Shown in pieces: positions 6,901-50,668 of a DNA stretch of 50,668 nt (position 1 is its first letter; the number at the start of each line of letters is the position of its first letter). Origin of the DNA: Paludibacteraceae bacterium (lineage in GTDB: Bacteria; Bacteroidota; Bacteroidia; Bacteroidales; Paludibacteraceae); assembly GCA_016280845.1 (NCBI GenBank), contig JAEEHO010000185.1:1-50668 (forward strand). The letters run 5' to 3'. The notes under the pieces are model-generated. The model was not told the origin of the DNA, did not search any database, and worked only from the letters and a program-made list of their open reading frames with translations. The position numbers and the translations under genes are program-made.

Positions 6901-9900
6901 TCTTGGAATGCCTGAGCATTACCTATCAGTCTGCGGAGACTACCACGCTGGATGTTTGTATCAAGCATGGTTCCAATCACAGGTAACTTCTGAAGCCAAT
7001 CGGATGCAGTATGTGCTGAAGGAGTGTAAGTATAGAAGAGATTTGCAAGTTCCTTAGCTTCTGCAGGAGTGTATATCGGAGTCTTCGTACCTTTCTGTGT
7101 CATGTGCAGAATACCCTGATAACACTCATCATACATCTGGGACTGTATCTTATCCCTGAGTTTACCGGGCATGTATGCGTAGTGTGGATTAAGGATATGC
7201 TTCTGATAGCTGCCTGTTGCAGAAACTCTATTGAAGAGGTCTGCAATCTCTTTCAGCTGGTCATCAGTGTACTTCGTTCCAGCAGGAAGCAAGCTACGCA
7301 TCTTAGCAATCTCTGTATCCTTGGTAATGTCTAAGAGTGCAGACATTCCAGTAGAGGCCTGATTGTTGAACACGTACAGCTGCTCAAATAAATCCTGAGG
7401 GAGCGTAGCATCCGGGAACTCCTTGAAATATTTGTCTATTGTATCTACTGTTAGAACTTTATATTTTTCTACAATTTGTCCAACAATATCTTTATATCCC
7501 TGCTGATACTCTAAGGCTACGCCCATGTAGTCAAGCACATCGAGGCCTGCTTCATTAACAGCCTTCAGTGTACTATCAAGTCTATTTCTGAAGGCGCTAC
7601 CTTGGATATTACTTAAGAAGAGTAATCCGAGGATACGAGCAGCACGTGTGGTGTTTTTCCATGCTACGAAGATATCGCTGAGTGCACCTTTGAGCGCACT
7701 AGCATGACACTTCTCGTAGTCCATGAGCTTGCGCTGACTGAGGATATATTCATTCACTTTGCCTAGTACAGAGCGCTCCATAACTACTACGGAGTCATCT
7801 GCAAGGTAGCGTGTAAGCTGTTCCTGATTTGTGAGCGCACGCTGTACTGCATTGTATCTACCCTTCTTGTCAAGGGTAAGAGTCACAAGTGTGTAGCCAC
7901 GTACATCAAGCTGCTGCTTAATAGTCTTCCAGTCAGGCTTCTTTACGCCTGCGTAGTTAAGCATACTGCGCAAGCTCTGTGAAGGATTGCTGAACAACCG
8001 GAGATAGTTTGTAGTAGCCTCCATCTTATCCTGTACATGGTGTAAGCCTCTAGCCATATTGTCTATGAGCTTATCAGATGCGTAAGGATTAAAGAGGCGT
8101 TGTGTATCTATATCTCCAATGATGCTACAGTTGTAGGACTCATTAAACCAGTTATTGATTCGTCCGGGTGCAATACGAGAAGCTTCAGGGAAGTACTGCT
8201 GTAAGTTCTGTACTGTCTCTGAAGTGAGTACTTCAAAGTTGGACATCAGGTAACGGCTAGGCATGTACTCTGACATCTTATCTAAGTACTCTCCAACCTT
8301 CTTGCGTGCGTACGACATGAAGTCTGAGCCGCCTTCCATAGGCACGTAGGAATTGAACGCACCCTTGTAGCTCTGTACAGGTACTGAGAACTCATCAACG
8401 CTGTTAATAAGGTCATCAAGCTGCTTAGGAGTATAACCGCTGAGGTCTTTGTAGATGGAGATATACTCATGGTTACCAATTACAACACGCTCTAATCTGA
8501 TGTCACGTGTGTTCTTTGTAAGGTCAGCCATACGCTTACCGAACAGGATACCAGCTTCACCCTGCAGTGCAACACACTTGGGGTCGATGAGCATCATGTT
8601 CATACAGTCACGCACGAGATGCTTTTCGAAGTCTTCATCTGAGAGCATACACAAAGTCTCAACTGCAGCACGCTTGTGTGCAGTGTTAACCTGGCTGAGG
8701 CTCTTGAGCTTTGCAGCCATCTGCTTATCATAGTCGTGCTTGATGATGTAGTTGTAGTAACCATCTATAGAGCCCTCAGCAAACTTAAGTTTTGAGGGTG
8801 TTGCCTCATTGAGTGCATCTACAAGGTCTGTGAACGGACGGTGAACCTCACTGTAGAGCTCGTAGTTGATACGGTTGTCGTGTGTGAGCCAGCGTCCCTG
8901 CTGGTATGCAGCTTCCTTCAGATCCAAATAAGTACCAAGAGATTCTGCTGAGTCAGCAATCTTCTTGTACTCATCCATGATAGCACGGGTAGAAACTACA
9001 CGGTTATTGAATCCTGCATATTTATTCTCTATGAGTGCTGTAGTTGTAGCATATCTGTGGATACTGTGCGCTGAGTTGTAGACAAGCTCTGCTGCACACT
9101 CATCATAGATGGTGCACAGTGCATCTTTAAAGTGGTCAGACTTAACAATCTCGTTCGCTCTAAGTGTACCGGAGAGCTGGAATAAAGTGTCAAGGTCAAC
9201 AAGGTTTGCATACTTCTTACGGAGTACCATGATTGCTGAGTAGTATTCAGCAGCAGTGTTGAGCTCAAGGTTTGCCCAAATAGGCATATCTCTTAAGCCT
9301 GCTGTCCTAGGATGTGAGGAAACCTGCACAACCAATGCTTCGTATACTTCCTTGTATGCGTCTGCACCAATATGGTCAAGCAGTTCAGGATTCTCTATCA
9401 GCTCGAAGGTACTGTTGAATCTCTTGGAGAGTTCGTAGATTGTATCCATGCGCTCTGTAATCTCTGCAGAAGTCATGCTGCTGGTAACTAAGTTCTTGAG
9501 TGTACCTTCGCTAAACCACTCTTCCATCAGAGCTGTATCAAATGTTTTCTTGAGCTGTATAGGATTGAACTGACCATTGACTGCATTGTAAAGCGCACGC
9601 ATTGAGTTGACACGGTGCAGCTTGTCACGTCCCTTGGATGCAATATCAATGAAGTCAGAGATTCGTTTCTCACTGATGACTGTCTCTAAAGCATCGCCAA
9701 CGATTGCTGTACGAGAATGCTCAACAGCGTGTACAACCTCTTCACCTGCTTTGAAGAAGTCACTGAGTGCGGGCATTGTCTGAGGTGCAGTACCATTGAT
9801 GATATCTGTAAGGCCTTTGAGCTGCTTTGCAATCTTAGGGTCTGTATCCATTACGATACGGCCTGCAGTGTTGTTGAGCAGTACGTCTAACTGCGCATCA

Positions 9901-12900
9901 TCAAGGGTATCTGTTATGGCTTTACGGATTGCCATTACTGTACCATCCTCGATGACAGCGTATCCACCTGCCTTACGGTAAATCTCAGCCACGTCTACTG
10001 CAGAGTTCCAGCGTACATCCATGCCGTTGTAGAGCAAGAAGTCTTTTATAACTCTGTCTGATCCGGTTACGGATGCACCTGAGTTGAAGCCAATGAAGCG
10101 AAGCCTCTTATTGGAATCAGTAGCACGCTGAGTGATAACATTCATGTAGCTCTGAATGTTCTGCAAGTACTCATCTTTAGAAGTTCCGGGGAACTGTTTA
10201 GCAACCTGCTGATACTGCTCAGTAGCTTCCATACTGCTGAGGTTATACAGACGTGTTGACTGAGAATCATGCAATACGAAAGGAGCTGCGGCATTTCTAA
10301 AGGTTGTTGTCTCTCCGTCGACTCTAAAGCTTATCATGCAAGGATCAGCATTGCGCACGGTACTGTCACAGCTGTAGAACACATCAATGTATTCAGGGTC
10401 AGGCTCGATGTAACCTTTAGCGAATCCTTCTATAGCAGCTACGTTGTCAGCAGTATTAAGAGTGTTGCATCCTGCTTTCCAAAGAGGAGCGACACCTTTA
10501 TCAGACACCTGACGTAAGTACTCGGTAGCATCATCTATGATAGAGTCAACAATGTTTTCGATGTACTTAGAGTTACGTGTCTGTGCATACGCCTTAGCGT
10601 AGGAATTAATCTTGTATGTCTTGTCACCTGCAAATGCATCAAGAACTGCATTGATTTGGTCCTCAGGACACTGGTTCAAAGTTGCAGCTGTCTCGAAGCT
10701 GTTGAAGAACTTCTGAGTACTTCTCTGCTCTGCACAGGTGTTCAGGAAGTCCTGAATCTGCGCATGGTATTCATCCAACTTGTCTACAGCTGTAGTGATA
10801 TACTCAGGAATCTCGTGCTCATATTGTGCTGCAAGCTCAAGGAGCTCATGCTTACGGTCGCTGAGAAGCGCATCGACATTCTTAAATGCATTGTTTACAG
10901 CACTGTTGATATCCAAGGCATCCTTTACAACAGTGCGCATAGCCTCATCTGAGGTGTATAACAATGCTCCCTGATACTTCTGCAAGGTAACATTGAAGAA
11001 CTTGCCAAGCTGTTCTGTCTCAAGCTCGCCCTCTGCATTGAAGAGCACCTGCTTGATGTGCTTGTGGTCTGTCAGCAACTGCTCCTTAATAACGTCTGCA
11101 GAAACATTTAAACCATGGTGTCTCTGCAGCTCCTTACGGAAACCTCTTGCTAAGTTGTTTAGAGCTGCAAGACGGTTCTCTGTACCCTTAGGAGCAATAG
11201 CATCAATGTATTCCTGATAAGGACGGTGCACATAACCTTTATATGCGATGACATCCCTATAGTTTTCCAAGTCCTGTAAATACTTCTCAGTATTCTCAGT
11301 GAAGGCTCTGATGCGCTCAATAAGAGTGTTCTCGACCCTAGGACTAGATAAGTTATCACCATATTCTTTAACGGCCTCTATGAGGCGATTTGAAGCTAAC
11401 TCATAAGCCTCAGGAGTAATAGACCTTGCGATGTTAGCATTGAAACCATCACGCATAGTCTGAACCAAAGTGTGAAGGTTCTCTAAGGAATTGATGACAT
11501 CGCCTCGTTTATAGGCTGCTGCTTCAAAGAACTTAGCGATATCTCCGGACATACGCCTGTAGATACCGATTGTACGCTCTGTACCTAAGAGGTTCTTAGA
11601 TGCGATGACGTTGTTGTACATTCTGCGGTAGTTCATGTATACCGCTTTCAAGTCGGGGCAAACGCCTTCAAAGAAAGGCTGGTTGTGTACGAGCGCATCA
11701 TTGAGGGCCTTGAAGTCATCGAAGCCAAGGCTTCTAGCGTGTTCATCAAGCTCCTCAATAACTTTAAATGCATCTGCACCCTCATCAACCTTGTGCATGA
11801 TTGCACGAATAGGTCCGAGAGTATCTTCTGTAAGATACTTTACAGTAGCATCCATGGCTCCCTGCTGGAACTGCTTGTAGAAATTTGCAGCACTTTCAGA
11901 CATCTTATCAGACGCAAAGAGGACAGACATCTCCTTCCTTAAATCTGCAAACGCATCTGCAAGTGCAGGAGAGTATGCCTTGTGAGTCTCACAGATGTCT
12001 GTGATACGTTTATTTATAGATTCCTGCGCAAAGGCTGCCTTCTTAGCGATGTTGATATCCTGAATGTAGCCGAGGAGTTTCTTAGTCCAGCGTACAGAGC
12101 CTACTACAGCAGCAAGCTGAGGAGCACCTGTAACAAGGATGAACTTGTTCAGCGCTCCGGTAATCTCACTAATGCTGTGTAAGGACTCAACGATTCCGGG
12201 AGTCTTATAGATTACTGAAGCCAGTGCGTTTCCGCTTTCCTTAGTAATCTTAGCAGCGTTCTCTACGCTGTACTTGATATAGTTCTGAGTGAACTTTGTG
12301 ATAGTTTCTCTATACGCGCCCTTGGAGGCAACGTTAAGGACATCCATCTTACCGAGATACTCTCTCATAAGTTTGGATGTAGTGTTTGCGGGTAAGCCGC
12401 GGCCTACCTGTTTAGCAAGCTTAGCGTACCACTTAGGGTCGAACATGTTCAGCATGTAGCCGAGACGAGCATTGGCAACGGCTTCTCGCATGAGCTTCTC
12501 ACCGCCACCGGACTCGATTGCATTCTTGACTGCACGTGCGTAAGCTTTGCCTATTGCAGCTTCTGTATCTGCATTACGTAAAATTGCAAGCTCTCCTGCA
12601 GCTGCATGGTCGCCAAGTATCTTTCTTAAGGAAGAAGGATTGACACCATCGGACTTGATGACACGCACACCTGCCTGATTAATTAAATCAAATGTGTCAT
12701 CAATATATTTTGTTGCAGTAGAATCTACAACTTTAGCGGCCTCTAAAGATGTCAGGCCTGACTTATAGATATCTATCCATGAGCCGGGGTCTAACAAGAT
12801 ATCCATGAAGGTAGTGAGCACACGAGCATAAGCACCACGCTCTTCGGGTGCATAAGTATTGATGTAGTCAAAGTTAGGTGTATCACCGTATGCACCGAGC

Positions 12901-15038
12901 CACATCTTGAATGCTACAGCACCTGCATAGCCTTCAGCATCAATCCAAAACTTTTGTGCCTCAGGTGAGAGCTTAGCATACTCTTCATCTGCAATCTTAC
13001 GAAGACGTGCCGCACGTACAGGGTCATCATAGTTACCATAGCGGTACTCATTACTTCCTGCACCAAGATACTTGAATACGTTGGTTGCATCTGCGGTTTC
13101 TCCTAAGCTGCCGAGAGAACTGAACAATGCATTCAGAGCAACTGTAGAAAGAGGGACACCCTGCTGAATCTGTGTAATGGGGCCTGTAACGAGACGAGCA
13201 GCGTACTCAGTAAGGTCTTTGTTGAGTGTAGACCCCTCGAATTGGTCAAAGAATGCACGTCCAATCGCACGCTTAGCAACATCTAACAAGGAGTTAACCT
13301 GAGTGGAGCTGTCCATATTGAGGTATAAGTCTGCCTCTTTATTGTAGCGCTCGACGCCCTCAGTAAGCTCACGAATGTAATCATCAATGCTGAGGCGGTA
13401 ATCCTCATTCATATAGATAGGCTTGTTGCGGTTAGCACGCATTCTGATAGAGAGCTCTCGGTACTGGGCCTTGTATTCTTCGGGAACTGTAAGCGATCCA
13501 AAAGCATCAGTAAGCATGGTGCGGTCGACTTTATCGCCCTTGCCACTCTTGATTCTATCTTCAGCTTCTATATAGCCTTTAAGTGCATAGTAAGTAGACA
13601 CTTCATCTCCGGTCATTCCGGAAGCTCTAAGTGCCTTAGTAGCCGCAGTGTACTCTTCAAGGACTGCGGAATATTCTGCGGTGTAATTAGCATACGCCTT
13701 TTCACGAGTCTCAACTAATCTCTGATAACGCTCAAAGACTTTCTGATACTCTGCAAACTCTTCGTTTGTAAGAGGGCGCTGCTTATCAAGTTCTATAAAC
13801 TCTCTGAGCTGGTCTTCTACAGCAGTCAGCTTACGGTTGATAACATTGGTAGGACTGTTGAGGTCGTACTCTCTGTCACGGGACATCTGCTGTAACTGTG
13901 CAGCATAGCTGTCTACGATTTTACGCTGTTCATCAACGCTGTCGCTCTGCGCATATCTGTATAAGCGTCCGGTAACAGTGTCATACAGCACGTACTTATC
14001 TTCTGCACCGATGCCTGCCAAGCGGTCACGGCCTATTGTGGCGTACTGCTGAGGGATATTTGATGCAGACATGGAGAACTTCGTATGCTGAATAGCATCT
14101 CCGTCCTCAATAACCCACAACTGCATTGTGCCGTTAGTGAGGCCATTAGTAACCTGCTGGTATGTGGTAGAGGTAACAGTGTTAACATTCCACTTGGTGT
14201 TACCCTTTACATTACTACCTGAACGGTTCACATCATAGGTATCACGGATATCATTATCTGAGTAACGCTTCTTGGTTGCATCCTGCAATGTGCTCAACAG
14301 TGCAGCCATGTCAGCTTTCTGACTGGAATGTAATCCTGCAAGCCCATTGAGCTTCTCATTACGCAGCATCCATGTGTATGTTTCAGGGAAACGCCTAGCA
14401 TTCTCTTCAACTGTACGTGCAAAGTCAGGCTTTACTTCAACATCAGGAAGGTTGTTCATGTACTGCACAAACCAATTATCAGCATACGCTGTACGAGGTG
14501 CAGGCATGGTTGAACTAGGGACATACGAAGTAAGCGCTGAGGTAATTCCTGAAAGCGCACCTATATTTCCTGCTGTTGACGTAGTGCTTGCAATCCTGCT
14601 TACAATCTTAGGTGTGGCGGGAACAACAGTAGGAAGCACTACAGGCTGCGCTGCTGGTTTAGGCGCAGGAGTAGGTGAATGTGTAGATGTAGAGTGTGAG
14701 GATGTACCCGATGAGCCCGACGAACCTCCGGATGAACTAGGTCTAGCCGCTTGTGCACCTGCTACAGCTGCTTGGGTGGCAGCAGACGTAGCAGGCTTAG
14801 GGGCTGGAGAGCTAGAATGTGAGGTATTTGTCTGCGTCGAGGGTTTGGACGTAGATGACGAGCTTGAGTGCGAAGTGTTTGAGTGCGTCGAAGGCTTAGA
14901 CGCAGGCTTCGACGAAGATGAGGAGCTGGATGGCTTCTTAGCAGCGGCAGCACCCGCAGCTGCACCTGCAGCGGCACCCGAAGATTTCTTCTTGCCGCCT
15001 GCATCGTTGACCATGGTGTTGACTTTACTAAGTGCCAT
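3960..15038 (-). CDS. Giant protein of 3692 aa with unknown function. It is a candidate virion internal/ejection protein.
   Basis: It is one uninterrupted ORF at the distal end of the late arm. It has an N-terminal Ser/Ala/Pro/Thr low-complexity region, a long mostly helical body, C-terminal repeats of about 70 aa and a basic Tyr/Arg/Lys tail. I could not recognise any catalytic motif. Confidence 0.85.
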   Translation of the reverse strand: MALSKVNTMVNDAGGKKKSSGAAAGAAAGAAAAKKPSSSSSSSKPASKPSTHSNTSHSSSSSTSKPSTQTNTSHSSSPAPKPATSAATQAAVAGAQAARPSSSGGSSGSSGTSSHSTSTHSPTPAPKPAAQPVVLPTVVPATPKIVSRIASTTSTAGNIGALSGITSALTSYVPSSTMPAPRTAYADNWFVQYMNNLPDVEVKPDFARTVEENARRFPETYTWMLRNEKLNGLAGLHSSQKADMAALLSTLQDATKKRYSDNDIRDTYDVNRSGSNVKGNTKWNVNTVTSTTYQQVTNGLTNGTMQLWVIEDGDAIQHTKFSMSASNIPQQYATIGRDRLAGIGAEDKYVLYDTVTGRLYRYAQSDSVDEQRKIVDSYAAQLQQMSRDREYDLNSPTNVINRKLTAVEDQLREFIELDKQRPLTNEEFAEYQKVFERYQRLVETREKAYANYTAEYSAVLEEYTAATKALRASGMTGDEVSTYYALKGYIEAEDRIKSGKGDKVDRTMLTDAFGSLTVPEEYKAQYRELSIRMRANRNKPIYMNEDYRLSIDDYIRELTEGVERYNKEADLYLNMDSSTQVNSLLDVAKRAIGRAFFDQFEGSTLNKDLTEYAARLVTGPITQIQQGVPLSTVALNALFSSLGSLGETADATNVFKYLGAGSNEYRYGNYDDPVRAARLRKIADEEYAKLSPEAQKFWIDAEGYAGAVAFKMWLGAYGDTPNFDYINTYAPEERGAYARVLTTFMDILLDPGSWIDIYKSGLTSLEAAKVVDSTATKYIDDTFDLINQAGVRVIKSDGVNPSSLRKILGDHAAAGELAILRNADTEAAIGKAYARAVKNAIESGGGEKLMREAVANARLGYMLNMFDPKWYAKLAKQVGRGLPANTTSKLMREYLGKMDVLNVASKGAYRETITKFTQNYIKYSVENAAKITKESGNALASVIYKTPGIVESLHSISEITGALNKFILVTGAPQLAAVVGSVRWTKKLLGYIQDINIAKKAAFAQESINKRITDICETHKAYSPALADAFADLRKEMSVLFASDKMSESAANFYKQFQQGAMDATVKYLTEDTLGPIRAIMHKVDEGADAFKVIEELDEHARSLGFDDFKALNDALVHNQPFFEGVCPDLKAVYMNYRRMYNNVIASKNLLGTERTIGIYRRMSGDIAKFFEAAAYKRGDVINSLENLHTLVQTMRDGFNANIARSITPEAYELASNRLIEAVKEYGDNLSSPRVENTLIERIRAFTENTEKYLQDLENYRDVIAYKGYVHRPYQEYIDAIAPKGTENRLAALNNLARGFRKELQRHHGLNVSADVIKEQLLTDHKHIKQVLFNAEGELETEQLGKFFNVTLQKYQGALLYTSDEAMRTVVKDALDINSAVNNAFKNVDALLSDRKHELLELAAQYEHEIPEYITTAVDKLDEYHAQIQDFLNTCAEQRSTQKFFNSFETAATLNQCPEDQINAVLDAFAGDKTYKINSYAKAYAQTRNSKYIENIVDSIIDDATEYLRQVSDKGVAPLWKAGCNTLNTADNVAAIEGFAKGYIEPDPEYIDVFYSCDSTVRNADPCMISFRVDGETTTFRNAAAPFVLHDSQSTRLYNLSSMEATEQYQQVAKQFPGTSKDEYLQNIQSYMNVITQRATDSNKRLRFIGFNSGASVTGSDRVIKDFLLYNGMDVRWNSAVDVAEIYRKAGGYAVIEDGTVMAIRKAITDTLDDAQLDVLLNNTAGRIVMDTDPKIAKQLKGLTDIINGTAPQTMPALSDFFKAGEEVVHAVEHSRTAIVGDALETVISEKRISDFIDIASKGRDKLHRVNSMRALYNAVNGQFNPIQLKKTFDTALMEEWFSEGTLKNLVTSSMTSAEITERMDTIYELSKRFNSTFELIENPELLDHIGADAYKEVYEALVVQVSSHPRTAGLRDMPIWANLELNTAAEYYSAIMVLRKKYANLVDLDTLFQLSGTLRANEIVKSDHFKDALCTIYDECAAELVYNSAHSIHRYATTTALIENKYAGFNNRVVSTRAIMDEYKKIADSAESLGTYLDLKEAAYQQGRWLTHDNRINYELYSEVHRPFTDLVDALNEATPSKLKFAEGSIDGYYNYIIKHDYDKQMAAKLKSLSQVNTAHKRAAVETLCMLSDEDFEKHLVRDCMNMMLIDPKCVALQGEAGILFGKRMADLTKNTRDIRLERVVIGNHEYISIYKDLSGYTPKQLDDLINSVDEFSVPVQSYKGAFNSYVPMEGGSDFMSYARKKVGEYLDKMSEYMPSRYLMSNFEVLTSETVQNLQQYFPEASRIAPGRINNWFNESYNCSIIGDIDTQRLFNPYASDKLIDNMARGLHHVQDKMEATTNYLRLFSNPSQSLRSMLNYAGVKKPDWKTIKQQLDVRGYTLVTLTLDKKGRYNAVQRALTNQEQLTRYLADDSVVVMERSVLGKVNEYILSQRKLMDYEKCHASALKGALSDIFVAWKNTTRAARILGLLFLSNIQGSAFRNRLDSTLKAVNEAGLDVLDYMGVALEYQQGYKDIVGQIVEKYKVLTVDTIDKYFKEFPDATLPQDLFEQLYVFNNQASTGMSALLDITKDTEIAKMRSLLPAGTKYTDDQLKEIADLFNRVSATGSYQKHILNPHYAYMPGKLRDKIQSQMYDECYQGILHMTQKGTKTPIYTPAEAKELANLFYTYTPSAHTASDWLQKLPVIGTMLDTNIQRGSLRRLIGNAQAFQDAETRTRTAMFLHYMEEGKTASYAEQHIVKSQFDYSKVGLIGHLETALPFSTFKIYNAAYWLAAAGEKFSTLKMITRFSKYTSRFYDTEDIAARIRDTHVAEWLADPNNGVKADEETPDATDGIMGWFAENIFGYQGVNELYAEGLRLGDNHYVKVGNSFTEAIQLCIDVMMAPEYIKRGQLPPILMDSVYTPLGVLFKFLADRDKNDFFNPTDRSYRDATSPVSGDFVNWAADRYYDILNLIPAFGMLANLVLTHIKNGAVNIADLKMMLCDENLKDAYMHKIFQATCDGLGTFFPSIVGTINDDKKGYYDREIGLNWYDNTNIEAIMQRINPETGKRYTKEEAEAFAKAYKGSHQFVAGISSLPAFMLKDPATYINYKYMFMRMGFGEKDVEENMGKLLDQLYGDGTYLNGIYINNGKNNDTYINIALLEDTFAALAAKGYDIDEVILQLQNQRWVNPATGELLKNSDLHKMLAQSAFLSAYEHLPDYVKYDKEQYAALIAYWKANGLTTEQAWMMMQSEYGYIDERGRYRILTEEQAKAYSQQLNDDYYEFLDQMPDWCKYEPGAASRTMNYFIGLGMSMEDAQRYILAHNAYVDVYGQLHQYSDEEVAQKNAQSQKEFYEYYNTLPDYIKYEKGAYGRTLKYLKSIPGMTDELARLFIRRGAYLTVDGRLINCTDMEQESNYTSKWVDYEKPLGYASFNDYYQTLPNYLKYEKGAFSRAYHILKSLGFAYNDILALIKQGAYAMEAGTAQSLFNTLPKDRAGIAVTDINTLLQKYGGVLIEYNGKYYTLLNCTGLNRSRSYRRTYNSSANRYTKRSYTKWNRKKYTRRPSSYIPNKFARPKNQRAVRHYYRSPYTQQPYVTKGSYSSTYSKVNLFAGASYGARQIYKIDIGRSPVRQALSTKSVYPAAYRNIVFAYRRSLYKDMYAKYGASRMRMRANVAHSYSNASIVRLRRNEIQYRVKYATKRSDPVVRKNKK
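4620..5800 (-). repeat. Tandem protein-level repeats of about 70 aa inside the giant ORF (at least 4 clear copies plus degenerate ones).
   Basis: The repeated core reads EHLPDYVKYDKEQYAAL / QMPDWCKYEPGAASRT / NTLPDYIKYEKGAYGRT / QTLPNYLKYEKGAFSRA. Each copy is followed by a ..G(L/M/F)..(E/D)......GAY...G pattern. Copies are spaced about 210-240 nt apart. Confidence 0.8.
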
Positions 15039-35206: not shown

Positions 35207-35524
35207 ATGATAGCAATCACTCTTAACAATCTCTTCGCAGCAACCATCATCCTTGTTTGCCTCATCGCACTCGTACTGGATATCATGGCATACGTAGCAG
35301 CAACCCATTCAATCGAAGCGCCTCAGAACGCTGAAGCCGAACTCCCTACATGGTGCTTACCGCCTAAGGTAAACAGAGAGCTTGTAGAGGACTTTGACCT
35401 CAACGAGATGCCTATCGCCTTCTTAGAACTCCTCACACTTGATAAAGCAGACGGTACTACACGACCTGCGCAATATCTCATAGAGGACGGAGAAATCACA
35501 GGAGTGATTATTGATGAAGACTAA
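35207..35524 (+). CDS. Small membrane protein (105 aa).
   Basis: TAAGGAGG lies upstream. The N-terminal TM segment is LFAATIILVCLIALVLDIMAYVAA. Confidence 0.55.
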   Translation: MIAITLNNLFAATIILVCLIALVLDIMAYVAATHSIEAPQNAEAELPTWCLPPKVNRELVEDFDLNEMPIAFLELLTLDKADGTTRPAQYLIEDGEITGVIIDED

Positions 35525-36029
35525 CTTCTATAACCAAGAGAAAGAATTCGTACCTATTAAAGGATACGAGCATGAGTATAAGATTAATCCTCACGGACAG
35601 ATACTCAGTCTACTCACTGACCAATACGTGACTACCTCAGTAGATTCCAAAGGCTATCTGATAGTACGCTTATATAAAGATGGACACTGCAAAGTCAAAC
35701 GTGTCCATATCCTTACAGCAGAAACCTTCATACCCAATCCTCAGAACTTACCCGTCGTAAACCATATTGACGGTAATAAGCAAAACCCGGATGTAACCAA
35801 CCTAGAATGGACTACGTTCTCAGAAAACACCTTACACGCACACAGAACAGGACTCATAACAAAAACTAACAATCAAAAGGTTGTTCGTGGCGATGGTAGG
35901 GTGTACGCCAGTGTGACAGAAGCAGCAAAAGACAACAACATCAGCAAGTCAGCAATAAGCAAAGTCATATCCGGCGAACGTAGAACCGCAGGTGGATACA
36001 CTTGGAGAAAGGAGAATGAAGATGGCTAA
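35511..36029 (+). CDS. Free-standing HNH homing endonuclease (NUMOD4 / HNH_3 / NUMOD1-like).
   Basis: Motifs are PIKGYEHEYKINPHGQILS, GYLIVRLYKDG, VHILTAETFIPNPQNLPVVNHIDGNKQNPDVTNLEWTTFSENTLHA and a C-terminal HTH-like ISKSAISKV. Confidence 0.85.
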   Translation: MMKTNFYNQEKEFVPIKGYEHEYKINPHGQILSLLTDQYVTTSVDSKGYLIVRLYKDGHCKVKRVHILTAETFIPNPQNLPVVNHIDGNKQNPDVTNLEWTTFSENTLHAHRTGLITKTNNQKVVRGDGRVYASVTEAAKDNNISKSAISKVISGERRTAGGYTWRKENEDG

Positions 36030-37294: not shown

Positions 37295-38818
37295 ATGGCT
37301 TGGAAACGAATCGCAACAAATCTTTCACCTATTTTTCAGACAGCATGTGCCCGAGCATACAACCGAGTATCAACAATCCTGTACAAATCTCGTATCCCCT
37401 TTACTACATATGATGTACAGGATGCATTCTCATGGTTGATGTTTCCAATTTATGAAGGCGCTACTGAATTACAGTTTGAGATAGACGCACAGGTAAGAGT
37501 AAAATCTTACGTACTTCCCAAAGACGTGCCTATCGAAACTACCGCTGACCGATTTGTAAACAATTACATTGTGAACGATTCTCGAAACCGCTCACGCAGA
37601 CATGTTATCATTATAAACACATCCACAAACAAAGCGCTTGAAGAACAAATCTGCGCTAAACTTGATGCGTTCACACAACGCGAAAGAGCACCACGTGAAT
37701 CATTCTATCAAGTTTCTACTATCCCAGTTCCGGCATTAACGCTAACACCTGTACACCGTGTGCGCTGTTACGATAAAATATTCGTTAATGATGAAGGCGA
37801 AGTATTTGTCACAAACATCATCTTAACAAATCTTTACGGAACTGAGATCTGCTCACGCATAAGTGCAGCCTTACTAGCACAGTGTACAAGATATAAAGAG
37901 TTCGTAAACAACGATGAAATCTTTGCAGCCCTTGTAAAAGGATATGCCGAAGCAGATGCAGAAATAGTCAACAACTGCGTACATCAGATATACGATGCTA
38001 AACTAAATGAGCTCAACGCTGCACGTATGGCAGAAGCTGTCAAAACAATCACAACCTTAGCCACAAAAGACATTACAAAAGCTGCTGAACAAACAGTAGT
38101 AGAGGCACAGCGTCGTGTACAAAACATTGAAGAAGATTACAAAGACGCACTAGGTAGACTCCGCAATGCGCAGCTCAATCTCTTAGAAGCTATGACATTA
38201 GGAACAACCGAACGTGAGCAACAGATTGCAGACTTCTTAACCAGCATCACACCTAACATAACCCATCTTCAGAAAGGTGACAACAATGCCATCTACTTAT
38301 CATACAAGACACCGTTATTATACTTTGAACCTAAGCACATGGAACTGATGCTCAACTCGTCTCGCCCTAATCCTTGTAACACTGCTCACCCTAGTATCAG
38401 AAGCCTGTTAAAAGAAGTATTTATAGATAAGACTTATCAATTCATCTTTGACACAGGTGTTGACATCGACTTACGTTACAATGATATCTACTACTGGGCT
38501 CCACCGACCAACATTGTTCTTCAGGGTATCCCTAATCCTCATCATAAGTACTACAACTGTTGGGGAGACAACAAGCCTTACATCAAGAAAGCACTCGTCG
38601 CTCATGATATGATAGCTGCAATCACACAGATAATCGCTGCATTCAGTGGCATGAACTTAACTGATACCGCAGTAGTTCGTAGGTTTGTAGAAGAAGAACT
38701 CATGACAGATTCTTACAAACGTATCCCTTGTCTCAAGAAATTAGCAACCGGAGAACTCTTTACTATTGAACAGTATTGTAACAATTACACCGCAGCACAG
38801 GAGGCTAACAATGCATAG
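37295..38818 (+). CDS. 507-aa protein with an unknown N-domain, a central coiled coil and a C-terminal domain with an E2/UBC-like Cys motif (tentative).
   Basis: AAGGAGA lies upstream. The C-terminal sequence YQFIFDTGVDIDLRYNDIYYWAPPTNIVLQGIPNPHHKYYNCWGDNKPYIKKALVAHDMIAAITQIIAAF resembles the beta-meander, HPN-like flap, Cys and helix layout of E2 folds. Confidence 0.3.
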   Translation: MAWKRIATNLSPIFQTACARAYNRVSTILYKSRIPFTTYDVQDAFSWLMFPIYEGATELQFEIDAQVRVKSYVLPKDVPIETTADRFVNNYIVNDSRNRSRRHVIIINTSTNKALEEQICAKLDAFTQRERAPRESFYQVSTIPVPALTLTPVHRVRCYDKIFVNDEGEVFVTNIILTNLYGTEICSRISAALLAQCTRYKEFVNNDEIFAALVKGYAEADAEIVNNCVHQIYDAKLNELNAARMAEAVKTITTLATKDITKAAEQTVVEAQRRVQNIEEDYKDALGRLRNAQLNLLEAMTLGTTEREQQIADFLTSITPNITHLQKGDNNAIYLSYKTPLLYFEPKHMELMLNSSRPNPCNTAHPSIRSLLKEVFIDKTYQFIFDTGVDIDLRYNDIYYWAPPTNIVLQGIPNPHHKYYNCWGDNKPYIKKALVAHDMIAAITQIIAAFSGMNLTDTAVVRRFVEEELMTDSYKRIPCLKKLATGELFTIEQYCNNYTAAQEANNA

Positions 38819-39608
38819 TATAAGATTAAATGAGAAGAGCCTTGAAGAAATGATAGACCTTTTAAAGGAACAGTTTCAGAAGGCTAACAACACCACAGAC
38901 AAGATTTCATTTACCTATAAATTTTCACATCCCGCAGAAGAGAAGGTGTGCTTAAAAATTGAAGAAGCAGCATGGAGAAAAATCAACGCACTCGTGGCAA
39001 CCTGCGATAAAGAAGTCGCATGGCACTGCACCGCTACTAAGACTGATAGTTCGTACATTATTGAAGATGTGTTCGTCTTTCCTCAGATAATCAGTGCAGC
39101 AACCGTAACCACAGACGATACAGAATACGCTAAGTGGTTAATGGCTCTGCCCGATAATGTATTCAACAAGCTCAGAGTACACGGACACTCACACGTAAAC
39201 ATGGGCGTAACACCTTCCGGAACAGATACCACCTATCAGGAAAATATCCTCACAAACGTTAAAGACTTCTTTATCTTCATGATACAGAATAAGAAAGGTG
39301 ATATCTGGAAAGCCATCTTTGACGTAGAAGCAAACGTAGTCTACGAAAATGAAGACATCCTCGTAATTACTCCGGATGTAACTGCAAATGTATGGGCTGC
39401 AGCACAGATAGAAACCTATGCAAAACCTGCAGTTATGCCTACAATAATACAGCAGCCTACAGTAACAGCAGCAAGCACTAAACCTAAAGCTGTTGTAAAA
39501 GAAAAAGGAAAAAGAGGCCGTTCGCCTAAAACAAAGACTGAACATGATTATGAACAGCTGTACATGCGTCAGTACTACGGTTACGGCTATCCTGAAGACT
39601 GGGATTAA
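38811..39608 (+). CDS. JAB/MPN (JAMM) metalloprotease-domain protein (start revised from 38766).
   Basis: The ATG at 38811 is preceded by AGGAGG and overlaps the upstream stop. The complete JAMM motif HGHSHVNMGVTPSGTD (HxHx7Sx2D) is present, with an upstream Glu (KEVAWHC). Confidence 0.8.
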   Translation: MHSIRLNEKSLEEMIDLLKEQFQKANNTTDKISFTYKFSHPAEEKVCLKIEEAAWRKINALVATCDKEVAWHCTATKTDSSYIIEDVFVFPQIISAATVTTDDTEYAKWLMALPDNVFNKLRVHGHSHVNMGVTPSGTDTTYQENILTNVKDFFIFMIQNKKGDIWKAIFDVEANVVYENEDILVITPDVTANVWAAAQIETYAKPAVMPTIIQQPTVTAASTKPKAVVKEKGKRGRSPKTKTEHDYEQLYMRQYYGYGYPEDWD

Positions 39609-39621
39609 ATAAGGAGGCAAT

Positions 39622-40338
39622 ATGGACACTTCAAAAGTTTTAGAATATTTCGACCCCTCAGAATACAGATTCGCATACAATGTCATCGGTTGCGGAGCGA
39701 TCGGTTCCCACGTGTGCGAACAGCTTACACGCTTAGGTATCACTGAAGTCCACATCTATGACTTCGATACCGTAGAAGCACACAATATCACCAATCAGAT
39801 GTTCTGCGACAGTGACATCGGAATGAGCAAAGTCGATGCTTGTGAAGCTGCAATGAAAGCAATCAACCCGGAAATTACGGTTTACAAACATCCCGAAGGA
39901 CTTACTCCTCCGTATGTAATCAACGGAATTTGCATCTTATGTGTAGATAACATCGACCTTAGACGTGAAATCGTAAAAGCTAATCAGTTCAATCCAAACT
40001 GCGCTGCCTTCTTAGATTTCAGAATGCGTTTAGTAGATGCACAGCACTACTTTGCAGATGCAAAGAACCGCTTTGAAGTAACAGAACTTCTGAACACCAT
40101 GGCCTTCACACATGAAGAAGCCATGGACGCAACACCTAAGAGTGCGTGCGGTGTAGAACTCAGTGTAGTCTACACAGTCAAAGCAATCGTATCTTTTGGA
40201 ATGGCAAACATGGTTAAATGGTTGATGTCGAGAGATGACTATAGAACCATGATGCAGGTAAACATGGACAGTTTCATAGTCGATGCTTTCAGAGCAAGAC
40301 CCAGACCTACTGTCAACATTGCAGCCGACACGAAGTAA
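39622..40338 (+). CDS. ThiF/MoeB/E1-like adenylyltransferase-domain protein.
   Basis: TAAGGAGG lies upstream. The Rossmann loop is VIGCGAIGSHVCEQLTRLGI. Other motifs are YDFDTVEAHNITNQMF (the NxxNQ equivalent of the NRQ motif) and ILCVDNIDLRREI. Confidence 0.75.
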   Translation: MDTSKVLEYFDPSEYRFAYNVIGCGAIGSHVCEQLTRLGITEVHIYDFDTVEAHNITNQMFCDSDIGMSKVDACEAAMKAINPEITVYKHPEGLTPPYVINGICILCVDNIDLRREIVKANQFNPNCAAFLDFRMRLVDAQHYFADAKNRFEVTELLNTMAFTHEEAMDATPKSACGVELSVVYTVKAIVSFGMANMVKWLMSRDDYRTMMQVNMDSFIVDAFRARPRPTVNIAADTK

Positions 40339-40434
40339 GGCATACTTTTTACTAAGGTGGGGTACAGGTAATCTTTTAAGTACCACTCCTAAATAAAATT
40401 TAAAGCCACCCCCCGGTCATAGAAAGGAGACACT

Positions 40435-41505
40435 ATGTACATAAATTACTACAGTCGCTGCAGATACATGCCTAATGCTACCCCGGAACAACTTGAGAAA
40501 GAAAAAGAACGCAACCTCGGACGTATCGTAACCAAACATATTGGCAGTATGCAAATGTCAGAAAAACAATGGATCGCAATCTGTAAACTACAAGCTATCC
40601 TACATGACTATTGCATCGGACGTGTGTTTGCATTAGCCGTAGATGTTGAAAGATCATGGCAGACAGAATGTTACGATATGAGTTCACGCTATATTCAATT
40701 TGACATTCCTAAACGGAGAGGTGGCACTAGACATCTCTGTGCACCTGATGAAGAATTGATGCAACTCCAGAAACGAGTACTCCACGTACTGACTAAAGAG
40801 CTGCACATCCTACCTCATAATGCTGCACACGGTTTCACCCCACATCGTAACTGCAAGACAGCATTAGAGTATCATCGTAAGCATCACGCACGTTGGTTCT
40901 TAAAGTTAGATATCAAAGACTTCTTCCCAAGCACCACAGCTAACATGGTGTATCGTGCAATACGCGATAATGCCATACTACACCGATTAAACGATACATC
41001 TATAAATCGACTAATCAACTTCTGTGTACTTGACGAAACTTTACCTCAGGGTGCGCCAACGTCACCGTTCTTAACGAACCTTGTGATGCAGCCTTTCGAT
41101 GAAGCTATTACAACGTACTGTAAAGTAAATCATCTGTGTTACACAAGATATGCAGATGACATCCTGATTACGAGCCCTACTACCTTTGAAATAGCCCCAG
41201 TCATCAATGATATAAAGAATATTCTTTTTGGCTTCTACACCATTAACGATGAGAAAACAAGATACGGCAGTTTCAACGGAAGAAACTGGAACCTCGGGCT
41301 TATGTATAATAATAAGTTTGAGATTACCGTAGGCCATGCCAAAAAGAAACTTGTTAAGAATCTCATACACAACTTTTTTACAAAACCTGAATGTCACACA
41401 GTTCAGAATTGGTTACACCTCATGGGTGTCGTCGGCTACTGCGCTTATATTGAACCGGAGTACTTCAACAAGTACCTCGAACAACTCAAGGCAGCAGAAC
41501 TATAA
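40435..41505 (+). CDS. Reverse transcriptase, retron-type/retron-like, with no accessory domains.
   Basis: GAAAGGAGA lies upstream. Motifs are YIQFDIPKRRGGTRHLCAP, AAHGFTPHRNCKTAL, FLKLDIKDFFPST, LPQGAPTSPFLTNLVM, YTRYADDILITS and INDEKTRYG. Confidence 0.9.
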   Translation: MYINYYSRCRYMPNATPEQLEKEKERNLGRIVTKHIGSMQMSEKQWIAICKLQAILHDYCIGRVFALAVDVERSWQTECYDMSSRYIQFDIPKRRGGTRHLCAPDEELMQLQKRVLHVLTKELHILPHNAAHGFTPHRNCKTALEYHRKHHARWFLKLDIKDFFPSTTANMVYRAIRDNAILHRLNDTSINRLINFCVLDETLPQGAPTSPFLTNLVMQPFDEAITTYCKVNHLCYTRYADDILITSPTTFEIAPVINDIKNILFGFYTINDEKTRYGSFNGRNWNLGLMYNNKFEITVGHAKKKLVKNLIHNFFTKPECHTVQNWLHLMGVVGYCAYIEPEYFNKYLEQLKAAEL

Positions 41506-41507
41506 AA

Positions 41508-41692
41508 TGCGCTAGAAGATTACCTTGTATTACGATACAAGCCTCTGAATCAATTTCAGAGTGTCATGATAAGCAGATGTTTCTGCACTAGACCTGAGGT
41601 CCCCTGCAGCGCCTCCAGCCGCGGAAGGACACGCGGAGGAGGCGACTGCCAGGGTCGCTCAGGTCTACGTACAGTAATAAAATGGTAGCGCA
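41508..41692 (+). ncRNA. Retron-like msr/msd module 1 (a1 - G - two short hairpins - 77-nt GC-rich hairpin - a2).
   Basis: The a1 arm TGCGCTA (41508-41514) pairs with the a2 arm TAGCGCA (41686-41692), and a G follows a1 at 41515. Short hairpins lie at 41524-41541 and 41543-41561. The long hairpin lies at 41590-41666, closed by AGACCTGAG/CTCAGGTCT. Confidence 0.45.
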
Positions 41693-41805
41693 TAAAGGCA
41701 AGATAACACCTTGCCTGCTTACCAGACATTTTGATAACGACTATCCCATAAAGTCTCCTTTCAAAATGTCAACCCTTATAAGTTTAATCACTTCACTTAG
41801 AAGCC

Positions 41806-41843
41806 CCTTTAACTAGGTTAAAGGTATCCGCCTGTTTTTTTTT
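41806..41843 (+). terminator. Hairpin plus T9 tract ending the RT-proximal structured RNA region.
   Basis: The hairpin CCTTTAAC-tag-GTTAAAGG is followed by 10 nt and then TTTTTTTTT (41835-41843). Hairpins at 41696-41716 and 41725-41770 precede it. Confidence 0.35.
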
Positions 41844-41893
41844 CATCGCATTAATATTGTTATAAGGGACTAAATACACAAGGAGGAATCGCA

Positions 41894-42370
41894 ATGCGAC
41901 GTGCAGAATACGAAGCAATGAAGAAATCGTTACAAGCTAAGTTAGCAGCACTTGAATCTGAGCCAATCGAAGAAGACTATAATCGTTGGACTCCTGAGAC
42001 AGGTGAAACTTACTATCAGCTTGGCGATGAAGGAGATGTTTTTGAGAACCGTTGGAACGACAACCTCACAGATCAGTACCTCTACAACTTAGGCAACTGC
42101 TTCAGAACTAAAGAAGCAGCAGCATTCGCAGCTGAAACTCTCAAAGTTATAGCAGAGCTCAGAAACTTTGCAGACCCTGCAAATGTTTGGGATGGTAAAA
42201 CACGTCATTACTATCTCGCATATAACTATGACAGAGATGCAATACTTATCTTAGGCGAACAGGGCGTTCGTACACATGACATCTACTTCAGCTCTATAAA
42301 AGTTGCAAATAAAGCAATTACAGAAATCGGAGAAGGTAGAATTAAGAAATACTATTTAGGTATTCTTTAA
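41894..42370 (+). CDS. Hypothetical 158-aa protein flanked by structured RNA modules.
   Basis: AAGGAGGA lies upstream. No motif was recognised. The sequence includes WTPETGETYYQLGDEGDVFENRW...GNCFRTKEAA. Confidence 0.6.
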   Translation: MRRAEYEAMKKSLQAKLAALESEPIEEDYNRWTPETGETYYQLGDEGDVFENRWNDNLTDQYLYNLGNCFRTKEAAAFAAETLKVIAELRNFADPANVWDGKTRHYYLAYNYDRDAILILGEQGVRTHDIYFSSIKVANKAITEIGEGRIKKYYLGIL

Positions 42371-42379
42371 ATTAAGTGA

Positions 42380-42518
42380 CGCTTTAGAAGGTTACATTAC
42401 CGCAACATGGCTGCTAACTAAGTTAGCACACACGCAATGTTATAAATGCATTCATCCGTACATGCAGCTCGTCTCCGTAGGAGACATTGAGCTGCAGTAC
42501 GACGCTTAAAGTAAAGCG
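42380..42518 (+). ncRNA. Retron-like module 2 (shorter).
   Basis: The a1 arm CGCTTTA (42380-42386) is followed by G and pairs with TAAAGCG (42512-42518). Hairpins lie at 42412-42428 (TGCTAAC-taa-GTTAGCA) and 42463-42496 (nested 8+6 bp). The 5' word GCTTTAGAAGGTTAC resembles GCGCTAGAAGATTAC of module 1. Confidence 0.35.
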
Positions 42519-50040: not shown

Positions 50041-50668
50041 ATGTAAGTGGACCCACGTAGATATCACAGACACAACACACTTATACGCCATGGTAGAATC
50101 CTTTAATCGCACACTGTCTCGTGGTGTCCTACTTGCATCAGCACTTGATACTGAGACAACAGGGCTTCATCATATCTATGATAAGCCCTTCTTGTTCCAG
50201 TTTGGATGGTGCACTTCCGAAGGCACAGGGTTCACCTACTTGGTGGATTTGGAAGAAACCCCCGAACTCGCTATCCGTACCATTACTATCTGGAATACCT
50301 TAGTTGCGCAAGCACCTATCTATTTAGGCCATCACGTATCGTTTGACCTGAATATGCTCCTTAACATAAATGTACCGTATTGGGCTCCCAATATTTCTGA
50401 TACACAGATATGGATTAGATTGGGTTCTGATGCAATCCCTGAACGTAAAGGTGGCGTACCTCTCGCACTTAAGAAGTTCGCTACGAACTATATTGATAGA
50501 AGCGCAGCAACCATGGAAGCTAAGCTGAGCAAAGAGCGTACAGCGATTGCTAAGAAATACAACATTACTCTGAAACGTAGCCTTGGGTGGACTCTAAAAC
50601 AAATTGAAGAGTTCTTCAAGGATAAGCTGCACACTTATGAAGACTTACCTGAAGAAGCTCGACAAAAG
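50033..50668 (+). CDS. polA: Family A DNA polymerase, N-terminal 3'-5' exonuclease part. It is 3'-truncated by the window edge and continues at base 142. The full protein is about 736 aa.
   Basis: The ATG at 50033 overlaps the stop of the primase-helicase gene (ATGCTTAA). An ExoI-like motif ALDTETTGL is present. The frame is open to base 50668. Confidence 0.9.
   Translation, partial: MLKCKWTHVDITDTTHLYAMVESFNRTLSRGVLLASALDTETTGLHHIYDKPFLFQFGWCTSEGTGFTYLVDLEETPELAIRTITIWNTLVAQAPIYLGHHVSFDLNMLLNINVPYWAPNISDTQIWIRLGSDAIPERKGGVPLALKKFATNYIDRSAATMEAKLSKERTAIAKKYNITLKRSLGWTLKQIEEFFKDKLHTYEDLPEEARQK
50528..50668. repeat. Terminal overlap copy 2, identical to 1-141.
   Basis: Same string as bases 1-141. 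Both copies lie inside the same open reading frame. Confidence 0.95.

Follow-up and report, generated by a model that had tools for sequence, protein, structure and literature searches.

Contig JAEEHO010000185.1 of GenBank assembly GCA_016280845.1, filed under Paludibacteraceae bacterium, carries a gene for a reverse transcriptase (RT) that is followed directly, on the same strand, by a structured RNA element at positions 41507-41693 (Table 1). All positions refer to this stretch of 50,668 nucleotides, hereafter the window. Upstream of the RT lie genes for a ubiquitin-like (Ubl) protein, a 507-residue protein (p507), a JAB-type metallopeptidase-like protein, and a ThiF/E1-like adenylyltransferase. 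Retrons are bacterial anti-phage systems made of one non-coding RNA (ncRNA), one RT, and one effector, and they are valued as in-cell factories of single-stranded DNA for genome editing. The RT of the window belongs to the retron clade, and the RNA keeps its architecture, its strand, its co-varying helices, and its constant place beside the RT in relatives. The element is likely a retron-type msr-msd ncRNA serving the RT that ends two bases upstream.

An earlier note on this DNA, made from the letters alone, had described a closing repeat TGCGCTA-G / TAGCGCA, two 7-bp hairpins, and a long hairpin at 41590-41666, and every one of these coordinates is confirmed. The RT stop codon TAA occupies 41503-41505. 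Two bases further on, the heptamer TGCGCTA (41508-41514) of the a1 repeat is complementary to TAGCGCA (41686-41692) and is followed by a G at 41515. The closing stem comprises 8 bp rather than 7, as A41507-T41693 adds an outer pair, and it reads ATGCGCTA / TAGCGCAT. Folding of 41500-41700 with RNAfold, which the note had suggested, returned the proposed architecture of a1/a2 stem and hairpins at -91.9 kcal/mol, compared with a mean of -54 +/- 4.6 for shuffled versions (z = -8.2; 0/200 shuffles as stable). The opposite strand of the element folds almost equally well (z = -7.9), so the strand is not given by folding alone. The small spacer hairpin of the minimum-energy fold (41573-41586) is not conserved in L016, a relative that is 79% identical.

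Table 1. Features of the RNA element, the RT, the second unit, and the linked genes in the window.
Feature	Position	Strand	Basis
a1, 5' arm of the closing stem, ATGCGCTA	41507..41514	+	sequence, fold, window-clade covariation
Candidate branching (priming) G, adjoining the 3' end of a1	41515	+	invariance in relatives
msr hairpin 1, CTTGTAT-tacg-ATACAAG	41524..41541	+	sequence, fold; distant-clade helix covariation
msr hairpin 2, CTCTGAA-tcaat-TTCAGAG	41543..41561	+	sequence, fold; window-clade alignment A9
Small spacer hairpin, GCAGA-tgtt-TCTGC	41573..41586	+	minimum-energy fold only
msd-type long imperfect GC-rich hairpin, presumed reverse-transcribed template	41590..41666	+	fold, compensatory pairs relative to L016
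Motif 5' of a2, AATAAAATGG; its last base is the invariant G opposite the branching G	41676..41685	+	column G25
a2, 3' arm of the closing stem, TAGCGCAT	41686..41693	+	sequence, fold, motif anchoring, covariation
Retron-clade RT, 356 amino acids, YADD active site	40435..41505	+	Pfam, PADLOC, NCBIfam, PDB matches
Probable second, short unit	41773..41868	+	fold, clade hairpin-2 consensus, L016 comparison
Second unit, a1 CCCTTATAA-G	G at 41782	+	
Second unit, hairpin CTTC-actta-GAAG	41791..41803	+	
Second unit, msr-type hairpin CCTTTAAC-tag-GTTAAAGG	41806..41824	+	
Second unit, U9 run, then a2 TTATAAGGG	41860..41868 (TTATAAGGG)	+	
Ubiquitin-like (beta-grasp) protein, 78 amino acids	37001..37237	+	AlphaFold2 + Foldseek
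p507, 507 amino acids, with conserved motif GIPNPHHKYYNCWGDN	37295..38818	+	conservation in relatives
JAB/MPN+ (JAMM) metallopeptidase-like protein	38817..39608	+	motif, RPN11 profile match
ThiF/E1-like adenylyltransferase	39622..40338	+	Pfam, PADLOC, NCBIfam

The RT matches the Pfam family RVT_1 (E = 3.5e-22). Among the PADLOC models, RT_II-A is best (1.3e-53), followed by the RT_III-A and RT_I-A models. The NCBIfam family retron_St85_RT is matched at 7.6e-59 (199 bits), and other NCBIfam matches are to the group II intron RT (1.5e-22), Drt3a (9.6e-18), and Drt2 (2.5e-12). The best PDB matches are all retron RTs, namely Ec83, Ec86, Ec78, Ec67, and Kva2; Ec83 (9e8z) aligns over residues 84-346 with E = 2e-30, and Ec86 (7v9u/8qbk) is matched at about 5e-22. 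The clade of this RT keeps an N-terminal extension of about 80 amino acids (residues 1-80; 40435-40675).

The layout of the RNA resembles that of Ec86 (Retron-Eco1, type II-A, with an St85-family RT). In both, an RT of the same clade accompanies an ncRNA closed by a1/a2, with a G directly after a1, an unpaired G directly before a2, and short msr hairpins ahead of a long msd hairpin. The outer sequence is also alike (ATGCGC...TA-G), as Ec86 ends in ATGCGCACCCTTA-G... and ...GAC-G-TAAGGGTGCGCA and the window element in ATGCGCTA-G... and ...ATG-G-TAGCGCAT. The arrangement differs. The single Ec86 ncRNA, present verbatim in 48 E. coli genomes, lies between the effector gene and the RT, upstream of the latter, whereas in the window the RNA lies downstream, and relatives of the window have more than one unit. 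Ec86 has a nucleoside deoxyribosyltransferase-like protein as its effector, while the genes linked in the window are those for Ubl, p507, JAB, and E1. Ec86 is host-defence cargo of a P2-like prophage, and the RT of the window is a conserved gene of an uncultured phage family. The closest solved RT to the window's is that of Ec83, one of the type I-A retrons, which consist of an RT, an SMC-like ATPase, and an HNH protein. Ec83 has ATPase and HNH partners and the motif VTG, unlike the window, which has NLG and another ncRNA position and copy number.

Conservation of the element was followed through homologues of the RT. The scored candidates include 6800 of these at E <= 1e-10, many of them on contigs about 48-53 kb long. 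The related loci taken for comparison number 198 and come from IMG/VR, metagenomes, and assemblies. Hundreds of uncultured phage relatives share the architecture, only on the strand of the RT and in diverged sequences, and covariation was judged by count-based controls (shuffles and slid alignments). In relatives, a1 and its G stand right after the RT stop codon (TAATGCATCA-G, AATGCACTA-G, ATACAGTC-G, TACACACAA-G, ACAATGCTA-G, GCATACTT-G, CACACATA-G, and CCTGTAAT-G), and each of these a1 sequences has its exact complement 120-330 nt downstream. An enrichment test counted loci in which an 8-mer plus G starts <=30 nt from the RT stop and has its exact reverse complement 70-330 nt downstream. Such a pair occurs in 50/150 non-redundant loci, compared with 6.55 expected from dinucleotide shuffles. 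A conserved motif precedes a2 in the window clade, TATAAT(G/A)G or TTATAATG, which is AATAAAATGG in the window. When a2 was defined by the TATAATRG motif alone and its complement was sought 50-430 nt upstream, an exact 8-nt complement was found for 30 of the 41 anchors, each of these complements was followed by G (30/30), and a shifted control gave 0/41.

In a gap-free alignment of the unit ends of 30 window-clade units (A5), the G after a1 (G9) and the G before a2 (G25) are invariant. The two arms are 100% paired in these units, a percentage that is partly circular because the units were picked for complementarity, and 8/8 pairs have changed on both sides. Double-sided changes number 93 cells versus 23 in shuffles; the maximum among slid controls is 48%. 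The enrichment and motif-anchored tests are free of this circularity. For hairpin 2, whose consensus in the window clade is YTTTnAAC-TAA-GTTnAAAR (CTCTGAA-tcaat-TTCAGAG in the window), alignment A9 is 97.4% paired, with 7/7 pairs changed on both sides and 57 double-sided cells versus 14 in shuffles; the hairpins in A9 were selected as hairpins. The long hairpin keeps its pairing relative to L016 through 3 compensatory double changes. At the msd site, relatives carry a long hairpin of unrelated sequence and length. In 111 units (L016-L198), GC content is 51% in msd versus 38% in msr and about 42-47% in the phage genome. GCCTCC/GGAGGC and CTGCAG are 4-5 fold over-represented in msd relative to mononucleotide shuffles, a count that ignores the kinship of the units.

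The TATAAT-like motif before a2 was considered as a -10 box and rejected, since a promoter there would truncate units. As it stands too close to a1/a2 for a -10 box, it is tentatively read as an RNA-level motif. It may serve in RT recognition, as an initiation site, or as a promoter. In relatives, a TATAATG-like motif also lies across the beginning of the unit 1 a1.

More distant relatives carry the same architecture in another sequence. A covariance model, R1, was built on the 5' half (a1, G, hairpin 1, and hairpin 2) of 14 of them. Across the loci, R1 has 180 matches at E <= 1, and all of them (180/180) lie on the RT strand. In an alignment of 94 matches, 98.1% of cells are paired versus 69.9% in shuffles, and double-sided cells number 394 versus 100; slid controls reach at most 45%. 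The helix equivalent to hairpin 1 is 96% paired, with 5/5 pairs changed on both sides, and the branch position holds G in 94/94 copies. In 83/94 copies, hairpin 2 is closed by a G.U pair, which would be a mismatch if read on the other strand; the RNA strand is therefore the RT strand. Within 60-420 nt, a complement of a1 matching in at least 7/8 bases is present in 83/94 copies and a full 8/8 complement in 62, where about 13 and about 0.5, respectively, would be expected by chance according to our own arithmetic.

The number and position of the units vary across the family. In the window and its clade, the gap between ThiF and the RT is 9-96 nt, which leaves no room upstream, and therefore every unit lies downstream of the RT. 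The closest relatives (RT 45-53% identical) have two or three tandem units in a spacer of 400-780 nt. The a1 sequences of these units are of distinct types that are orthologous between loci (ATGCnnnA-G, ACCTACAA-G, and ACACTTTA-G). As a rule, units 1 and 3 have a long msd hairpin; the short second units have U-runs and no long hairpin. In the distant clade, a unit occupies the canonical position upstream of the RT in 31/42 loci, and at least one downstream unit is present in 34/42, with two or more in 19. These arrays have one unit upstream and/or one to six tandem units downstream, spaced by about 280-320 nt, each a complete msr-msd with its own a1-G...a2. The locus with seven units is L105 (2085, 3934, 4237, 4560, 4861, 5227, and 5517). 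The multi-unit loci extend over 2085-5800 in L105, 2284-6600 in L116, 2390-4500 in L071, and about 3530-4300 in L189-L198. Judged from their sequences, the multi-unit loci amount to natural retron ncRNA arrays. The earlier note had called the RT-then-ncRNA order atypical; the window and its clade do have that order. Because distant relatives have an upstream unit as well as tandem downstream units, what typifies the family is an RT with ncRNA units around it, and not just an inverted order.

In the window itself, 41773-41868 is probably a second, short unit. The region folds with z = -3.25 and has no long hairpin. Its msr-type hairpin fits the hairpin-2 consensus of the clade, and comparison with L016 reveals one compensatory change. 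The closing stem by itself is weakly significant, with about 0.4 expected by chance according to our own arithmetic.

The genes upstream of the RT form a cluster with ubiquitin-like and E1-like members. The single-sequence AlphaFold2 model of the 78-residue protein has a pLDDT of 75, and among the top 50 Foldseek PDB matches shown, essentially all are ubiquitin chains, mostly with probability 1.00 and a TM score of about 0.55. The protein is kept upstream of p507 in those loci whose upstream flank covers about 6 kb (L001-L006 and L016), and one copy lies downstream in L111. Its C-terminus is KADSAQ in the window, of the general form KAD(S/N)A(Q), with no GG end. In p507, GIPNPHHKYYNCWGDN (residues 411-426; 38534-38581) is nearly invariant and contains an invariant Cys. 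The p507 model has a pLDDT of 80, and no function emerged from searches by sequence, by PDB sequence, or by fold. Its 'NPHH...C' resembles the E2 motif HPN...C, but fold searches gave no support and no E2 claim is made; no recognizable E2 was found in the cluster. The JAB protein has invariant residues E66 and H124-S-H126-x7-S134-x2-D137. Its profile matches RPN11 across the motif (E = 0.009), and Prok-JAB is weakly matched in 8/40 members. The ThiF/E1 protein matches Pfam ThiF (4.2e-21), the Cap2-like E1-E2 model of PADLOC (1.2e-14), and ThiF/MoeB families of NCBIfam. E1 and JAB genes lie upstream on the same strand in 106/110 loci whose RT is >=31% identical to that of the window, compared with 5/23 loci with RT identity <31%. 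The cluster persists across contigs of 45 to 190 kb and contains no known retron effector domain.

Given a direct terminal repeat of 141 bp (positions 1-141 and 50528-50668), the window is probably a complete phage genome, about 50.5 kb long, which either has terminal repeats or was assembled as a circle. Among its genes are those for an SU10-type portal, DNA polymerase A, a primase-MCM helicase, and an SNF2 helicase, and the RT locus adjoins replication genes. A single open reading frame of 3692 amino acids occupies 3960-15038 on the minus strand. A few genes separate the cluster from an upstream gene for an HNH / I-HmuI-like homing endonuclease (35511-36029), which is also present in L016. 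The family is carried by uncultured phages, about 45-190 kb in size, from gut, rumen, and termites. Among GenBank phages, blastn found no DNA relative, and protein searches found distant RTs together with the uncultured record MT835544.1, which is the best RT match and the only GenBank phage record with a JAB homologue. A search for relatives with protein P0003 yielded no confirmed relatives, and one with P0058 returned contigs already known. No reliable host was identified, as the phage-like contigs are binned only in metagenome-assembled genomes.

By analogy with Ec86, a course of msDNA (multicopy single-stranded DNA) synthesis can be proposed. The ncRNA would most likely be co-transcribed with the RT gene, as no terminator lies between them; a sigma-70 scan found no promoter near 41400-41520 for separate transcription of the ncRNA. 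In the folded RNA, a1 would pair with a2 (41507-41514 with 41686-41693), and the RT would bind the two msr hairpins. The 2'-OH of G41515 may then prime DNA synthesis, with the cDNA starting opposite G41684, just 5' of the unpaired G41685, if the geometry is that of Ec86. The long hairpin (about 41590-41684) would be copied towards msr, and the expected product is a 2'-5' branched RNA-DNA, the msDNA, with a length of roughly 95-100 nt that also follows the Ec86 model. The suggestion that the phage uses the module for itself comes from its conservation across a phage family, its place among early/replication genes, and its coupling to Ubl/E1/JAB rather than to a retron toxin. Counter-defence, competitor exclusion, and DNA metabolism are all possible roles, among which the data do not discriminate. 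With low confidence, and by analogy with the sensor-plus-effector logic of bacterial retrons, the RT-msDNA complex or complexes may work with the conjugation module during infection in counter-defence or in the exclusion of rival phages.

Several observations weigh against assigning the element to a retron. The 199 bits of the RT fall below the 235-bit curated cut-off of the NCBIfam St85 family. Mestre et al. (2020; PMC7736814) describe NAXXH and VTG as motifs that mark retron RTs. In the RT of the window, N-L-G takes the place of the VTG of Ec83 in the alignment, as part of an invariant W-N-x-G or W-N-L-G (residues 284-288; 41284-41296), and the N-terminal motif H-N-A-A-H-G holds NAxH, one residue short of NAXXH. 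A scan with curated RNA covariance models, which the earlier note had proposed, came out negative, as Rfam (release 15, 4227 models) gave no match at the gathering threshold in the whole window and no relevant match at E <= 10 in 40300-42000. Nor does R1 detect the window's own unit, filters off included, because the window clade has a different hairpin-2 sequence. The family membership of the window RNA consequently rests on the alignments of its own clade, which were built from units chosen partly for complementarity. The coupling of the RT clade to the Ubl/p507/JAB/E1 cluster is strong, although it is a linkage by synteny only, and the ncRNA as a whole is a computational prediction. On the other side stand the retron-clade RT, the a1/a2 covariation, the invariant Gs, and the msr covariation, and these support the proposal of the earlier note that the region is a template/primer RNA for the adjacent RT; the covariation for which it had proposed to test the closing stem is present in 8/8 a1/a2 pairs, and that of hairpin 2 in 7/7 pairs.

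These weaknesses leave some place for an RNA that is a cofactor of the RT rather than a canonical msDNA template, as a scaffold, a regulator, or a template of the DRT2/DRT9 kind. DRT2 makes rolling-circle cDNA, and DRT9 synthesizes homopolymers. Such a cofactor would suit an RT with NLG for VTG, an 80-residue N-terminal extension, and a score below the family cut-off, as well as short second units that have U-runs instead of a long hairpin and the unusual setting of a conserved phage cluster with Ubl/E1/JAB. We nevertheless consider it unlikely, given that the similarity of the RT to Drt2 and Drt3a is far weaker than that to retron RTs, that the a1-G / G-a2 geometry and the msr-msd layout are as in Ec86, and that long msd hairpins are usual in units 1 and 3. 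A role confined to the message, in which the region is a structured 3' untranslated region or a terminator/stabilizer stack for the RT mRNA, had been named by the earlier note as the refuting alternative. A start 2 nt past the stop codon, a very stable fold, and a U-run further downstream (at about 41835-41843) all fit this alternative. However, a consensus scan found no terminator-like site on the plus strand in 39500-42500, and no U-run follows the long hairpin itself. A terminator also needs no co-varying 8-bp stem around 170 nt with invariant inner Gs, and no repetition up to seven times, upstream of the RT included, which makes this explanation very improbable.

It is scarcely credible that the hairpins act as DNA, whether as a replication origin, a packaging or recombination site, or the template repeat of a diversity-generating retroelement (DGR). 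The minus strand does fold nearly as well as the plus strand, and the locus adjoins replication genes. The strand asymmetry is against it: the G after a1 would be C on the other strand, 180/180 model matches lie on the RT strand, and G.U closing pairs (83/94) in the distant clade are joined by U.G pairs in hairpin 2 of the window clade. The DGR template repeat in particular was rejected, as the rest of the genome holds no repeat partner beyond chance and the RT is of the retron clade, not DGR-type. The retron-type msr-msd ncRNA thus remains the best account of 41507-41693.

The position of the RNA is compatible with what is known of retron RTs. The order of RT and ncRNA has been inverted artificially (Khan et al.), and retron RTs are known to function both with the engineered RT-then-ncRNA order and with arrays of ncRNAs (10.1101/2024.01.25.577267; PMC10370050). 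The operons and 'multitron' arrays of the Shipman laboratory have the RT-then-ncRNA order or the arrayed ncRNAs seen here, but they are synthetic. Because the engineered inverted order works (10.1101/2024.01.25.577267), the upstream position appears to be a habit of known retrons and not a mechanistic requirement. None of the retrons of Mestre et al. involves Ubl, E1, or JAB (PMC7736814). The linked cluster shares a beta-grasp Ubl, an E1-like ThiF protein, and a JAMM peptidase with CBASS Cap2/Cap3, the Bil Ubl-E2-JAB-E1 system, and PRTRC cassettes. It differs from them in that it has no recognizable E2 and a Ubl without GG, is encoded by a phage, and is coupled to a retron RT; the papers searched report no such coupling for any of them. 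In the literature, which was covered incompletely, we found no natural downstream or tandem retron ncRNAs, no phage-conserved retrons, and no retron combined with ThiF, JAB, or a ubiquitin-like protein. The locus appears novel on three counts, namely the downstream and tandem ncRNAs, the conservation in phage genomes, and the linkage to ubiquitin-like conjugation.

Taken together with the arrays, the locus can tentatively be read as a new retron type that a phage family carries as a conserved module, in which one RT would reverse-transcribe an array of one to seven distinct msr-msd RNAs lying to either side of it and the msDNAs would act with Ubl/p507/JAB/E1. Such a module would amount to a naturally occurring 'multitron' in the service of the virus, which may employ it in counter-defence, inter-phage competition, or genome replication and not in host abortive infection. 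Retron machinery as a conserved part of phage genomes would, if confirmed, add a phage-side chapter to retron biology. Confirmation would also mean that natural RTs have evolved for several templates, which is relevant to multiplexed retron editing, and it would connect reverse transcription with prokaryotic ubiquitin-like signalling.

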